NCBI GenBank assembly: GCA_019118885.1
Contig: DWYB01000057.1
Location: 226 to 64,225, forward strand
Direction: 5' to 3'
From: Candidatus Mediterraneibacter surreyensis
GTDB taxonomy: Bacteria; Bacillota; Clostridia; Lachnospirales; Lachnospiraceae
DNA: 64,000 nucleotides
The translations under genes and the position numbers were made by a program. Under the pieces are notes generated by a model. It worked only from the letters and a program-made list of their open reading frames with translations. It did no database searches and was not told the DNA's origin. Shown here in pieces: positions 54,137-60,944 of this stretch (the stretch's first letter is position 1; every line of letters begins with the position of its first letter).

Positions 54137-54970
54137 TTGTTTTACACTGGAAAGACGCTAGATACTTTTTGCCCGGCTTTGGACCAGCTGATGGAATATG
54201 AGAGACTGCCGAAGATAAGCAGTGCGGACTGTGTCAGCCTGCGGGCGTTTGGGTTCTGTGCAGACGGCGGGGCGAAAGAATGGTTCCGGCCTTTGCTCGA
54301 TATAGAAAGTGCGGTCAGGAATCTGAGTGATGCGGCAGGACTCCCCTTTTTGGCTGTCCATGTATGTAAAGGTTCTGACAGGATGGAACTGCCGGAAGCT
54401 TTTGTCTTTGGCCCGGCGAAAAGCGGGATTGCGGCACCGGCGGTAAGCGACCGCTACTACAGAGGCGACGGAAGATATTTGTTCGTGCAGCATCGGGAAA
54501 AGAAATATCAGATATTTGATCCATGGGGGTTCCCGGGTATGTGGATGACGCGGGAGGAACTTCTGTCTCTGGCTGACAGTCAGATTGGGTGCTTCATTAT
54601 CTGTTTGCAGGGAGAGGGCATGGATAGAAACGGTTTATCCCGGGAAGTATCCTGTGAAACGATATTAGAGCGGGGCATAAAGTATCACAAGGAAATAAAA
54701 GAATGCGAGTATCAGAGCATAAAAGGGGCTGTGAGACGTTATGCAGGCACGCAGAGTGAAAGAATTGCGCTCAGATATGGAATCCTCAACATGATCCAGA
54801 TGCTGGATAAAGTTTTTTTACTTGCTGCAAACTGCGGGCGGCAGGATATAAAAACAGAGTATGACGAAATAAAGCAGCAACTGTTTCGTATGGCGGAATC
54901 AGCAAACATCAGGGAGCTTCCCGGCACATTGGTCAGTATATGGAGGAGTCTGGAGAACGATGGAAGATAA
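54137..54970 (+). CDS. BtrH-N-like (papain-fold acyltransferase-like) protein, paralog 1
   Basis: 277 aa with a TTG start. It aligns by eye with the protein at 59991: MFYTGKTLDTFCPALDQL vs RFYGNEICCGSYACLNAM, and GRYLFVQHREKKYQIFDPWGFPGMWMTREELLSLA vs DHYILLEYYSDNEAYCTDSEGFYQYRLSYEELRAYL. The family assignment comes from recalled BtrH_N/DUF4872 patterns. Confidence 0.45.
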   Translation: MFYTGKTLDTFCPALDQLMEYERLPKISSADCVSLRAFGFCADGGAKEWFRPLLDIESAVRNLSDAAGLPFLAVHVCKGSDRMELPEAFVFGPAKSGIAAPAVSDRYYRGDGRYLFVQHREKKYQIFDPWGFPGMWMTREELLSLADSQIGCFIICLQGEGMDRNGLSREVSCETILERGIKYHKEIKECEYQSIKGAVRRYAGTQSERIALRYGILNMIQMLDKVFLLAANCGRQDIKTEYDEIKQQLFRMAESANIRELPGTLVSIWRSLENDGR

Positions 54971-56225
54971 ATATGCTTTTTTGGACCCCATGGATAAAGC
55001 GTGGGAAGATATTATGGAAGGTCTGAGAAAAACGGAACAGGAGTGGGGTGCACCGTTCTATATTTTTCATAAAAATTTGTTCATCCGTAATCTGAATCTT
55101 CTGAGAGAGCATCTTGGCGGGGACGTGGATATTGCTTTTGCCATGAAAGCGAATCCCTGGCTGGCTCCGGCAGCGGCTGAGGTGGCAGATTATATTGAGG
55201 TGAGTACGGACGGAGAACTTAAGATGTGCCGGGCGTATGGAATACTGGGCAGCAGGATTACCTTAGACGGTGTGCTCAGGACAGAGGCTATGCTTCGGGA
55301 CGCCCTTGATATGGGCGTGAGGAGATTCGGCATTGATTCAGTGGATCAGGCAAGACAGATTATAGGATTATGCGATGAATTATGTGCTGCCGGAAAATTA
55401 GGAGAGGATTCTGTGAAACTGCTTCTGCGGCTTAGCAGCGGAGGCAGGTTCGGGATGGGGACGGAAGAGGCTGCACAGTGCTTTAAGACCTGCGGTGAAA
55501 GTAAGCATGCCAGGATTGTCGGGATCCATTATTATTCGGGGACGCAGCGAAGTGAAGCCGGGAAGCTGAAGCGGGAGCTGGAATATTTCCGGCAGACTTT
55601 GAACAGCCTTTGTGAACTACCGGGAGCTGCCATATACGAAATACAGTTCGGATGCGGCCTTGGATTCCCATATTTTTCTGAAGAAAAGCGAGAGGGATAT
55701 GCGGCTGCTGTGGATGAAGCCGCAAGGTTTGCATATAAGCTGAAGGGAAAATTTAAAGTGGTCTATGAAGCCGGTAGATGTGCGGCAGCTTCAGCAGGAG
55801 TCTATGTGACGAAGGTGTTTCAAATAAAAGAGCGCGAGGATAAGAAGATTTTGTTCTGTCTTGGCGGGACAAATCATCTTCGGTATCCGGGAGGAGCGCT
55901 CGGCATACGGACTCCGCATATAGAGCACCTTTGCGGAATGCCTTCGGGAAGAATATCGGGCTGTATGATCTGCGGCGCGCTGTGCAATGAAGCGGATGTA
56001 CTCGCACGCAGCGCGGCAGTGGATGAAGGTGTACAGAGAGGAGATTTGTTGATCTTCTGCGGGGCCGGAGCCTACTGCGCGACAGAGGCATCGAATTTGT
56101 TTTTATCTATGGAAATGCCGTCGGTATTAGTGTATAATAAAATGAATAATGTGTTTTGCACACAAGATATGCGGTGTTTGCGTGGGCATTCATCAACATA
56201 TAGACTTCTGGACGATAGGATGTGA
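54960..56225 (+). CDS. Type III PLP-dependent decarboxylase (Orn/DAP/Arg decarboxylase family; BtrK-like)
   Basis: The PLP-lysine motif is IAFAMKANP. Other family motifs are HYYSGTQ, YEAGR and ICGALCNEADVL. The start overlaps the upstream stop by 11 nt. Confidence 0.75.
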   Translation: MEDKYAFLDPMDKAWEDIMEGLRKTEQEWGAPFYIFHKNLFIRNLNLLREHLGGDVDIAFAMKANPWLAPAAAEVADYIEVSTDGELKMCRAYGILGSRITLDGVLRTEAMLRDALDMGVRRFGIDSVDQARQIIGLCDELCAAGKLGEDSVKLLLRLSSGGRFGMGTEEAAQCFKTCGESKHARIVGIHYYSGTQRSEAGKLKRELEYFRQTLNSLCELPGAAIYEIQFGCGLGFPYFSEEKREGYAAAVDEAARFAYKLKGKFKVVYEAGRCAAASAGVYVTKVFQIKEREDKKILFCLGGTNHLRYPGGALGIRTPHIEHLCGMPSGRISGCMICGALCNEADVLARSAAVDEGVQRGDLLIFCGAGAYCATEASNLFLSMEMPSVLVYNKMNNVFCTQDMRCLRGHSSTYRLLDDRM

Positions 56226-59994: not shown

Positions 59995-60944
59995 GATTTT
60001 ACGGAAATGAGATTTGCTGCGGGAGTTATGCGTGTCTGAACGCGATGCAGGATCCGGCCATTGATTTGCAGCTGTTCGAGATATCGACATCGACTCCTTT
60101 TGGAATCCGGCATTTTGAAAACGAACATTTCGACAGGTTGCTCACGACATACTGTGATCCGAACCGGGGAATGGACCGTGCGCTCCGCTTATGGGGATAT
60201 GATGCGGAAACTATTCGAACAGGCACTGCGGAAGAGGCGGTGCAGGAGATCCGGCGTTGGATCCGCCCGGCTTTTCCCGTCATTGTCGGTCCAATTGATA
60301 TGGGGAAACTCGGCTATCAGATCATGCCGGTTCTGCTGAAAAGAATGGATCATTATATCTTGTTGGAATACTATTCAGATAACGAGGCATATTGTACGGA
60401 TTCGGAAGGCTTCTACCAATACCGCCTTTCATATGAAGAACTGCGGGCGTATCTGTCTGCCGATGCCGTACCGGAGGCAGACGGATGCATAACAGTTCGG
60501 CAGATTAGGAAAAAGCGGGAATACAAACTGGAAGATGTCCTGGAACAGTCGCTTAGTTACGCAGCAGATAATCTTCGCGCGGCAGAAGAAACAGGAGCGG
60601 GATCATGGGCAATCAGGAACTGCTGTACATATCTGAAACAGCATAAGGAATATAAGTGGCGGCTTCCGCTCCTGTATGATATCCAGTATCTGAAGCAGAG
60701 AAAATTGCTGATGGAGCTTTTAATAAAGCTGCTGGAAGAACACGGAAGATATCCAGGTGGGCAGGCAGGAGAGATAAGGCAGATTGTAAATACACAGAAT
60801 GAGTTGCTGGAGAAGCTTTATGGAAATTTGCAGAAAGGAAGAGGAATTGATGAAGGGAGTTTTGAGCAGATGGCGCAGTTAGAGAGTAGACTGTCAGACG
60901 AATACCTTTTTAAGAAAGCTTTACCTGAATGGAAGAATCAATAG
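59991..60944 (+). CDS. BtrH-N-like (papain-fold acyltransferase-like) protein, paralog 2
   Basis: The TTG start at 59991 overlaps the ligase stop (TTGA), with a GGGAGGGG RBS 7 nt upstream. The N-terminal Cys region is RFYGNEICCGSYACLNAMQD, followed by DHYILLEYY...TDSEG (candidate His/Asp). The C-terminal helical half resembles DUF4872. Confidence 0.5.
   Translation: MRFYGNEICCGSYACLNAMQDPAIDLQLFEISTSTPFGIRHFENEHFDRLLTTYCDPNRGMDRALRLWGYDAETIRTGTAEEAVQEIRRWIRPAFPVIVGPIDMGKLGYQIMPVLLKRMDHYILLEYYSDNEAYCTDSEGFYQYRLSYEELRAYLSADAVPEADGCITVRQIRKKREYKLEDVLEQSLSYAADNLRAAEETGAGSWAIRNCCTYLKQHKEYKWRLPLLYDIQYLKQRKLLMELLIKLLEEHGRYPGGQAGEIRQIVNTQNELLEKLYGNLQKGRGIDEGSFEQMAQLESRLSDEYLFKKALPEWKNQ

Follow-up and report, generated by a model that had tools for sequence, protein, structure and literature searches.

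What do the tightly coupled genes of an operon in a gut bacterium make or modify, and by what chemistry? The question is raised by seven genes (g1 to g7) at positions 54137-60944, on the + strand, of a 64,000-nucleotide stretch of Candidatus Mediterraneibacter surreyensis (contig DWYB01000057.1), which we call the window. A prediction made earlier from the letters alone (hereafter the original prediction) had read them as a carrier-protein pathway with the logic of butirosin side-chain assembly. It offered two roles: a small-molecule cluster with a linked pentapeptide-repeat protein (PRP), or a Dlt-like system that decorates the envelope. We find that the logic of carrier protein, pyridoxal-phosphate (PLP) decarboxylase and BtrH-type transacylase is upheld, and that the first role is the better supported of the two. 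The operon would thus encode a non-canonical thiotemplated pathway, independent of non-ribosomal peptide synthetases (NRPSs), to a small molecule, a reading to which we give a probability of roughly 55%.

The seven genes lie head to tail, and their junction sequences match exactly the overlaps and gaps first reported. Overlaps of 11 nt (54960-54970), 23 nt, 1 nt (TAATG) and 4 nt (TTGA) join g1/g2, g4/g5, g5/g6 and g6/g7, respectively, while g2/g3 and g3/g4 are separated by 7 nt and 3 nt. Purine-rich stretches resembling ribosome-binding sites lie upstream of the g1-g7 starts, and the same starts were picked by gene callers on independent metagenome contigs. A promoter and terminator scan was close to background, and its result was not used. 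More than 20 independent loci have the same genes in the same order, with identities of 25-90%. Thus, the arrangement is not due to chance.

The conserved unit comprises eight genes and begins one gene earlier, with a membrane PRP (51572-54118, + strand). This protein of 848 amino acids carries pentapeptide repeats and four transmembrane (TM) helices, is assigned by Pfam Pentapeptide families and by co-conservation, and its gene ends 18 nt before g1. The PRP gene and g1-g7 are probably co-transcribed.

Co-conservation of the unit in other genomes is strong. We compared neighbourhoods on annotated contigs and, with tblastn, at 16 genome loci. The order PRP, g1, g2, g3, g4, g5, g6, g7 is constant around g7 homologues of 36-82% identity, and the hosts are Mediterraneibacter, other Lachnospiraceae and Oscillospiraceae. 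Relatives come from metagenome-assembled genomes (MAGs) of chicken, mouse and rabbit gut, and from at least three records without a MAG label; an identical g4 protein is indexed in 172 blocks of the sequence collection. At the most distant loci, identity is approximately 25-36% for g1, 30-40% for PRP and 53-65% for g4 and g5. Genes beyond PRP and g7 vary from locus to locus, and among the compared neighbourhoods there is no conserved flanking transporter, regulator or phosphopantetheinyl transferase. Nor did a phosphopantetheinyl transferase turn up among the window open reading frames (ORFs) scanned, as originally noted.

Five of the seven enzyme assignments made originally (PLP decarboxylase, carrier protein, radical S-adenosylmethionine (SAM) enzyme, NadE-type ATPase and ANL adenylating ligase) are borne out by hidden Markov models (HMMs). 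The motifs quoted with them (FAMKANP, EFDSIM, SGGLDS and the ANL core) are present and invariant across the family. The invariance of catalytic motifs was judged over 17-20 divergent orthologues.

The first enzyme of the predicted pathway is g6 (58567-59994, + strand; 475 amino acids), an ANL enzyme of the VinN/FlvN type that stands alone and adenylates amino acids. It scores 222 bits to PF00501, 226 bits to TIGR01733 and 261 bits to TIGR03098, and only 145 bits to the DltA model, whose cut-off is 560. Over residues 116-400, its best match in the Protein Data Bank (PDB) is VinN (3wvn; 174 bits), with NRPS adenylation domains well behind at 130 bits. In an ungapped HMMER alignment, g6 and VinN have an identical TECKR and a common (W/F)D(F/Y)GLY motif. 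In VinN, D230, F231, S299, K330 and R331, on a shortened beta13-beta14 loop, serve to recognise 3-methyl-aspartate or aspartate in the manner of a beta-amino acid (PMC11253843). These five residues align with D178, Y179, T247, K278 and R279 of g6, which, together with K460, are invariant in 19 sequences. From the residue-level likeness, g6 is predicted to attach an aspartate-type amino acid to g3 by its side-chain carboxylate.

The two partners expected of a VinN/FlvN-type enzyme, an acyl carrier protein (ACP) and a fold-type III decarboxylase, are adjacent and co-conserved. The acyl/peptidyl carrier protein g3 (56233-56511, + strand; 92 amino acids) falls just short of the PF00550 cut-off (20.3 against 20.8 bits), which its orthologues exceed. 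It also gives weak matches to NCBIfam ACP models, AsbD and AmcB among them, and its phosphopantetheine serine, Ser47, lies within an invariant DS(I/L) motif. The PLP decarboxylase g2 (54960-56225, + strand; 421 amino acids) belongs to the Orn/DAP/Arg family and is above cut-off for both PF02784 (59 bits) and PF00278 (39 bits), with an invariant PLP lysine, K63, in a KAN motif. It is not a LysA equivalog (TIGR01048, 141.8 bits; cut-off 297.9) and lies under the equivalog cut-off of TIGR03099 at 138 bits. A sequence search of the PDB gives LysA at 96 bits and BtrK at 67 bits. Tethering of aspartate or glutamate to an ACP by the side chain, followed by PLP-dependent alpha-decarboxylation, is known from FlvN/L/O, CtaD/E/F and BtrJ/I/K (PMC11350588; PMC7183216). 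With these precedents and the VinN signature in g6, conversion of aspartate (or an analogue) to beta-aspartyl-S-g3 and then to beta-alanyl-S-g3 is the most likely course of the first two steps.

The VinN signature also makes VinN/VinL/VinO (vicenistatin) and FlvN/FlvL/FlvO (fluvirucin), rather than butirosin, the closest precedents. These systems have the same stand-alone ANL enzyme, small ACP and fold-type III PLP decarboxylase, and VinN, with its D/aromatic/S-T/K/R signature, is the best solved relative of g6 over the core. In the Flv type, aspartate is tethered by its beta-carboxylate and decarboxylated to beta-alanyl-ACP (PMC11350588). The original prediction was correct that loading by an ANL enzyme departs from butirosin, but this is not a new twist, having a precedent in macrolactam starter modules. 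Unlike Vin and Flv, the operon has no polyketide synthase, no protecting-group enzymes of the VinM/VinK/VinJ type and no glutamate mutase. Its aminoacyl-ACP would instead go to a predicted papain-like transacylase, and its hosts are gut Clostridia, not actinomycetes.

A second precedent, closthioamide (CtaD/E/F/G/H/I/C of Ruminiclostridium cellulolyticum), is likewise NRPS-independent, carrier-based and from an anaerobic Firmicute. The likeness extends to the formation of beta-alanine from aspartate on a carrier, to a ligase of the CtaG fold with a Cys-His-Asp triad, and to a tailoring ATPase of the PP-loop superfamily. Closthioamide is a gyrase inhibitor (PMC7183216). Our unit differs in having one carrier protein, not two, no ATP-grasp CtaD, and a PP-loop enzyme (g5) that is NadE-type and without the Fe-S motif of CtaC. 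Beyond closthioamide, the operon has a RaSEA-like radical SAM enzyme, a degenerate second CtaG-like protein and the membrane PRP.

The predicted transacylase, g7 (59991-60944, + strand; 317 amino acids), belongs to a family that sequence models do not name. Pfam and NCBIfam gave no match for g7 or g1, and the PF14399 test proposed with the original prediction failed for both. Of the 82 clusters in the g7 family, not one has a precomputed Pfam domain or a functional name, and a family profile run against PDB sequences gave only spurious TMEM106B matches. Structure is more informative. An AlphaFold2 (AF2) model built from the family alignment has a predicted local distance difference test (pLDDT) score of 92.5, and its only significant Foldseek neighbours in the PDB are AziU3/U2, CtaG and CcbD (probability 1.0, E 2e-6 to 6e-4; TM-score approximately 0.45-0.6), including CcbD bound to a peptidyl carrier protein domain. 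The model has a papain-like domain at its N-terminus and a helical one at its C-terminus. This bipartite fold with a Cys-His-Asp triad defines the CtaG class, which also holds BtrH, AsbE and MllDE at less than 14% identity (PMC12865890). C10, H121 and D137 of g7 are invariant in 57 sequences, and their spacing resembles that of the residues in the names of CtaG variants in the PDB (C11A, H128A and D144N). When the 57 family members were scanned singly, 25 gave a sub-threshold BtrH_N match (PF14399, E ≤ 1; best 8e-5), while no other Pfam family recurs in more than three. From the predicted fold and this weak family signal, we conclude that g7 is probably a remote member of the BtrH/CtaG fold class and works like BtrH and CtaG, although the window copy fails the Pfam model. 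It would be a carrier-protein-dependent transacylase with a putative catalytic Cys10-His121-Asp137.

Homologues of g7 also occur elsewhere. Searched by tblastn against plasmids, g7 found lone Streptomyces and Embleya hypothetical proteins only, in uninformative context. These are remote homologues, with 29% identity over approximately half the protein. The one on the Streptomyces plasmid NZ_CP108746 (L048:11917-12846) neighbours a MerR regulator and belongs to no recognisable carrier-protein cluster; for Embleya, the stretch is unannotated.

The other protein that had been called BtrH-like, g1 (54137-54970, + strand; 277 amino acids), occupies the same position in all loci. BLASTP finds no similarity between g1 and g7, BtrH_N occurs in none of 23 g1-family members, and the AF2 model of g1 is poor (pLDDT 61) with no significant Foldseek match. 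The fold assignment of g1 therefore comes from a profile-profile comparison with hhalign, which links the g1 and g7 families over 183 columns (probability 93.4%, E 2.6e-7). The alignment pairs R113 of g1 with H121 of g7, and D128 with D137. At the N-terminus, g1 has an invariant G-K-x-x-D-T where g7 has G-N-x-x-C-C, so that Asp9/Thr10 and Arg113 stand at the Cys and His positions and only D128 of the triad is kept. Invariant residues of g1 are G5, K6, D9, R36, D128 and W269. Thus, the claim of two BtrH-like proteins holds for g7 through its predicted fold, its triad and the BtrH_N signal in its family, and fails for g1 except for the hhalign link. On that link, g1 is best interpreted as a remote, catalytically degenerate paralogue of g7, missing the Cys and His.

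Azinomycin offers a parallel for such a pair. Its cluster contains two BtrH-fold paralogues, AziU2 and AziU3, and thus shows a precedent for pairing in a heteromer; in the structural comparison, g7 matched AziU3/U2 best. By this analogy, we infer that g1 may be a non-catalytic partner of g7. The function of AziU3/U2, formation of an aziridine, is unrelated to transacylation (PMC12865890).

Two further systems use a transacylase of this fold. In butirosin (BtrI/J/K/H), an acidic amino acid is carried and decarboxylated by a fold-type III enzyme, BtrK, which is a significant PDB match for g2, and a BtrH-fold enzyme hands the acyl group to an amine. The operon differs from butirosin in its ANL rather than ATP-grasp loading, in the lack of aminoglycoside-core genes, BtrG and BtrO/V, and in that g1 and g7 of the window lie below PF14399. 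In petrobactin (AsbC/AsbD/AsbE), an ANL enzyme loads a stand-alone carrier and a free amine receives the acyl group from a transacylase of the CtaG/BtrH fold (PMC12865890), and g3 gives its weak match to AsbD. Unlike petrobactin, the predicted substrate of g6 is an amino acid (the Asp235 equivalent, D178, is present) and not an aryl acid, and the operon also has a decarboxylase, a radical SAM enzyme and a NadE-like protein.

Between loading and transfer, g4 and g5 could add the tailoring that sets this unit apart. The radical SAM enzyme g4 (56515-57687, + strand; 390 amino acids) matches PF04055 and belongs to the RaSEA/YhcC/ELP3-like class. It carries a Cx8Cx2C motif (C49, C58, C61) and a second four-cysteine site (C297, C300, C327, C329), both invariant in 20 sequences. 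A sequence search of the PDB found no relative, and tblastn of g4 against phages gave no match. Its nearest family is RaSEA (TIGR01210; 151.8 bits, cut-off 212.15). We rejected an identity as the archaeosine enzyme RaSEA: the score is under the cut-off, and neither ArcS nor TGT is present in the unit, making g4 a relative of the class and not a member.

The PP-loop ATPase g5 (57665-58567, + strand; 300 amino acids), of the NH3-type NadE-like kind, is the most conserved gene of the unit, at 55-65% identity in distant loci. It scores 130 bits to PF02540 and 115.5 bits to TIGR00552 (cut-off 63.65), and 133.9 bits to the full-length equivalog NF010587, short of its cut-off of 255. Its best PDB matches are NH3-dependent NAD synthetases, and its SGGLDS PP-loop is invariant. 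CtaC is a TtcA/TtuA-like Fe-S enzyme (PMC6772006). A role for g5 as a CtaC-type thioamide synthetase is therefore ruled out, since g5 is NadE-type and has no such cysteine motif.

Natural gene fusions indicate how g4 and g5 may be used. Among relatives of g4, one protein fuses the radical SAM enzyme to NadE (P0165, 674 amino acids) and another fuses an ACP to the radical SAM enzyme (P0228, 459 amino acids; L035:9930-11309). These fusions argue that g4 and g5 act jointly, and on a tethered intermediate. The fusion of NadE to the radical SAM enzyme of the pathway also favours a pathway-specific role for g5. RaSEA and ArcS offer a possible model: the radical SAM enzyme, in the family nearest to g4 with its non-canonical Cx8Cx2C motif, works alongside a partner that installs nitrogen at an activated carbon. 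The difference is that g4 has a bacterial host and no ArcS or tRNA context, and is fused to an ACP or NadE in relatives. By speculative analogy with QueC, ArcS and RaSEA, the PP-loop enzyme might add nitrogen at an activated carboxylate or carbonyl, and radical C-N chemistry might follow, to give an amide or amidine.

The same two proteins could instead point to cofactor or nucleoside modification, in which g5 and g4 would act on a nicotinate- or nucleoside-type substrate and the carrier branch would add a beta-aminoacyl substituent. The score of g5 above the TIGR00552 domain cut-off and the archaeosine enzyme as nearest family of g4 are consistent with this. So is one locus (L032:10966-14326) in which a LarB-like gene (AIRC) begins 15 nt beyond g7, with a LarC-like gene (Ni_insertion) past two chromate-transporter genes. 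LarB and LarC build the nickel-pincer cofactor from nicotinic acid nucleotide, and NadE and LarB have nicotinic acid adenine dinucleotide (NaAD) as a common substrate. However, g4 and g5 are both under their equivalog cut-offs, the unit has no transglycosylase, ArcS or LarA/LarE partner, and the Lar adjacency is confined to one lineage. Furthermore, NadE is dispensable, being absent from the variant loci L024 (Bariatricus sp. SGI.154; 287-4988) and L028. We regard such a role as a long shot.

PRP is more than the upstream neighbour of the original prediction, which had linked it to the cluster correctly; it is constantly present in the unit, and its four-TM domain is conserved. Four N-terminal TM helices are followed by a soluble middle region and by repeat blocks at approximately 390-520 and 580-840. 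The most conserved segment is TM2 with the next loop, in which W53-P54 ... YVFLK..LDR...EK.Y..I..YR is invariant. The PRP gene is directly upstream of g1 in every locus whose contig extends far enough, and the linkage is reciprocal in more than 20 loci, down to approximately 25-60% identity. When the N-terminal domain of PRP was used as the query in the opposite direction, ten metagenome loci came back: three with the whole cluster, their sequence continuing beyond g7, four that break off in g1 or g2, and three that do so within the PRP gene itself. Among 1.84 billion representative proteins, this domain has 47 relatives, and the full-length ones are all 785-950 amino acids long.

McbG, AlbG, CysO, Qnr and MfpA are pentapeptide-repeat proteins of self-resistance, and PRP likewise has its repeat blocks encoded beside a biosynthetic operon. 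Proteins of the Qnr/MfpA/AlbG type form a right-handed quadrilateral beta-helix that mimics DNA. Unlike these, PRP has 848 amino acids, a four-TM domain and an uncharacterised middle domain, and it scores far below every Qnr, MfpA and HetL equivalog cut-off. HglK of Anabaena has a comparable architecture of four TM helices and repeats. The membrane architecture of PRP is atypical for a self-protection protein; by analogy with the proteins above, PRP may nevertheless protect the producer.

A quite different role, which we consider very unlikely, would make PRP the target or effector, acylated by g7 or gated by the product, and the unit a mobile module of the conflict or defence type. The strict reciprocal linkage with the PRP gene in first place would fit, as would the mobile islands beside insertion sequence (IS), integrative and conjugative element (ICE), integrase, Abi and Fic genes, and papain-fold enzymes are able to act on proteins. 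There is also a weak NCBIfam likeness of PRP to the Hailong effector HalA, but it reaches only 52 bits against a cut-off of 250 and is confined to generic repeats. A known defence system was rejected, since none of the ten proteins run through PADLOC matched a model at a meaningful level. Furthermore, no sensor or nuclease-type effector is present, and two distant relatives keep the enzymes with no PRP in the available sequence (L035) or in its available part (L034).

Distant relatives expand the core with tailoring and resistance-type genes, and this favours a thiotemplated small-molecule cluster. These relatives, with approximately 40% identity in g4, are found in Anaerocolumna sp. AGMB13020 (L034), L035 and L036/L037. 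They keep the g1-g7 order, with an extra protein of 169-278 amino acids between g4 and g5. Some or all of the following are added: a KASIII-like enzyme, an SbnA/CysK-like PLP enzyme, a methyltransferase, a nitroreductase, one to three radical SAM enzymes, a major facilitator superfamily (MFS) transporter, an ATP-grasp protein, and also a UvrA-like ATPase. In L036/L037, a TM and pentapeptide-repeat protein is again encoded upstream. The UvrA-like ATPase ends the expanded clusters (L036:16057-18390; L035:15890-18160); it is truncated (756-777 amino acids) and has no TM helix, and the 777-amino-acid form scores 692 bits to TIGR00630. Such a pattern, in which the core stays constant, tailoring genes vary and resistance-type genes can be swapped, has the look of a biosynthetic gene-cluster family. 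UvrA-like proteins of the DrrC kind confer resistance to DNA-binding drugs. Pentapeptide-repeat proteins are known self-resistance markers, used in mining for topoisomerase inhibitors (PMC5982219). On these two grounds, self-protection by PRP and the UvrA-like ATPase is proposed.

Decoration of the envelope is the other role that had been put forward. Here g7 would move the beta-aminoacyl group to an amine or hydroxyl carried by a membrane lipid, a teichoic acid-like polymer, a capsule or a flagellin glycan, and PRP would present or translocate the acceptor in a Dlt- or MprF-like manner. The conserved PRP membrane domain with its invariant charged loop and the lack of an exporter in the unit are compatible with this. 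So are the surroundings of some loci: L008 lies near GT1 and MptE/Maf-like genes, and L011 near GDPD, DegT and hexapeptide transferases. The top NCBIfam models for g2 and g6 are a decarboxylase and ligase pair associated with exosortase A and exopolysaccharide, and BtrH and CcbD acylate amino sugars (PMC12865890). However, flanking genes vary in almost every locus, and the constant unit has no glycosyltransferase or flippase. Unlike in Dlt D-alanylation, no MBOAT protein (DltB) or DltD was seen among proteins of the unit or conserved neighbours. The unit also rides ICE- or IS-bounded islands, and its expanded relatives carry UvrA-like, MFS, KASIII-like and methyltransferase genes of secondary-metabolism type. 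The two flanking genes first cited for decoration lend it little weight: the UbiA-like gene has no HMM support, and the membrane metallophosphoesterase of the window occurs only in close relatives and in one distant variant, L024. Thus, we consider envelope decoration unlikely, and favour a pathway to a small molecule.

The small-molecule pathway that we propose has five steps. First, g6 would activate the side-chain carboxylate of L-aspartate or a close analogue and load it onto the phosphopantetheine arm of g3. Second, g2 would remove the free alpha-carboxylate, giving beta-alanyl-S-ACP or a substituted beta-aminoacyl-S-ACP. Third, g4 and g5 would tailor the tethered intermediate or the acceptor: g5 may adenylate a carboxylate or carbonyl oxygen and swap in nitrogen, leading to an amide or amidine, and g4 may abstract hydrogen, possibly with RaSEA-like C-N chemistry. 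Fourth, the acyl group would pass to Cys10 of g7 and on to an amine acceptor, as with CtaG, AsbE, BtrH and CcbD, with the degenerate g1 as a possible non-catalytic partner analogous to AziU2/AziU3. Fifth, PRP might shield the producer, for instance by mimicking DNA if the product is directed at DNA or topoisomerase, or might instead couple the pathway to the membrane. The first two steps draw on residue-level similarity to characterised enzymes and the fourth on a predicted fold with a conserved triad; the third and fifth are what we infer.

Several observations weigh against this pathway. The scores of g2 against diaminopimelate (DAP) decarboxylases, which use free substrates, equal or exceed its scores against BtrK, which weakens the case for action on a tethered substrate. 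Because g5 passes a NadE domain cut-off, a nicotinate nucleotide is a conceivable substrate for it. Neither g1 nor g7, as found in the window, matches PF14399 even at E ≤ 10. PRP, at 848 amino acids and with four conserved TM helices and a loop motif, contrasts with soluble immunity proteins of its kind, which have approximately 200. A fifth hydrophobic segment of PRP, near residue 350, is over the hydropathy threshold in most homologues and not consistently TM-like, which makes the sidedness of the repeat domain uncertain. Finally, a transporter, a regulator and a phosphopantetheinyl transferase are all missing from the minimal unit, and no product, acceptor or exporter can be named.

More specific, and held only tentatively as a doubtful extension, is the proposal that the product is a new chemotype of DNA- or topoisomerase-directed molecule. 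It would be built on a beta-aminoacyl carrier intermediate, with a nitrogen function (amide or amidine) introduced by a radical SAM/NadE pair that would be without precedent and work on a tethered substrate, and with PRP, as a new class of membrane-anchored pentapeptide-repeat protein, being the dedicated immunity and/or export partner. Should PRP and the UvrA-like genes be markers of self-resistance, the gut bacteria could be making a new metabolite that targets DNA or gyrase; if the product is attached to the envelope, the unit would be a new Dlt-like decoration system.

The original prediction could name no characterised pathway of this composition, and we likewise found none in the searchable literature. 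The parts are of known kinds, namely beta-amino-acid formation of the VinN/VinO type and ligation of the CtaG/BtrH/AsbE type. The elements added to these are a RaSEA-like radical SAM enzyme coupled to a NadE-like ATPase, and a dedicated membrane PRP. Their combination with a degenerate CtaG-like protein was not found in the searchable literature. Few natural products are known from obligate anaerobes, and the thiotemplated, NRPS-free pathways of these organisms are missed by standard genome mining. Published mining for such pathways uses the ATP-grasp CtaD as its handle (PMC7183216), which the operon lacks. The module is also compact, self-contained and widely spread.

In the window, the operon sits within a lower-GC, strand-switched island at 48-64 kb, with GC content and GC skew switching at approximately 48 kb. 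The island is bounded by an IS1182-type DDE transposase (48120-49469, + strand; PF13751, PF05598) and an IS110 fragment (63683-63973). Other contigs carry a truncated TraG/VirD4 coupling protein upstream (L001:166-1053), a hint of a conjugative element in decay, and downstream an IS110 transposase; assemblies usually break at the flanking IS copies. The operon is most likely horizontally mobile.

The remaining genes of the island are less constant. Downstream of g7, g8 (60957-61820, + strand) encodes a membrane-anchored YaeI-like metallophosphoesterase of approximately 284-287 amino acids, which matches PF00149 and scores 98 bits to NF008460 (YaeI), under the cut-off. It follows g7 only in near-identical contigs and is absent there in relatives of 75-82% identity. 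Thus, g8 is a variable accessory gene outside the constant unit. Just upstream of PRP, L024 carries both a second radical SAM paralogue of the RaSEA-like kind and a metallophosphoesterase with 42% identity to that of the window. In the window, a two-TM protein of 134 amino acids without a Pfam match is encoded just upstream of PRP (51112-51516, + strand). Its homologues, at 58-74% identity, occupy the same place in L015, L017, L038 and L041-L045; it is conserved in the close clade only and absent from distant loci. It is one of several small hydrophobic ORFs without family matches at 49973-51516 (90, 55, 75/105 and 134 amino acids). After g8, at 61888-63464, lie genes for an unknown protein of 148 amino acids, a 233-amino-acid protein with a weak DUF6575 match and a SecB-like protein of 130 amino acids, found only in near-identical contigs. 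These genes may make up a toxin-antitoxin or accessory module that includes a chaperone.

The rest of the window is chromosomal. Rfam detected no riboswitch or RNA family in the window. A 1157-amino-acid protein with HD-CE and HATPase_c domains is encoded in the chromosomal part (29807-33280, - strand); an unrelated-looking HD-CE protein of approximately 1490 amino acids directly follows the expanded cluster in L036/L037 (L036:18484-21155). Host-glycan utilisation genes predominate, with glycoside hydrolase (GH) families GH20, GH84, GH29, GH2, GH31 and GH32, a phosphotransferase system (PTS) and a LacI regulator. Very large secreted hydrolases (GH20, GH84 NAGidase, GH29 fucosidase, GH2 and GH31) are encoded at 1346-24009 and 36842-42955 on the - strand, and among their domains are F5/8 type C, FIVAR and Listeria-Bacteroides repeats. 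This set is typical of gut Lachnospiraceae that degrade mucin and host glycans.

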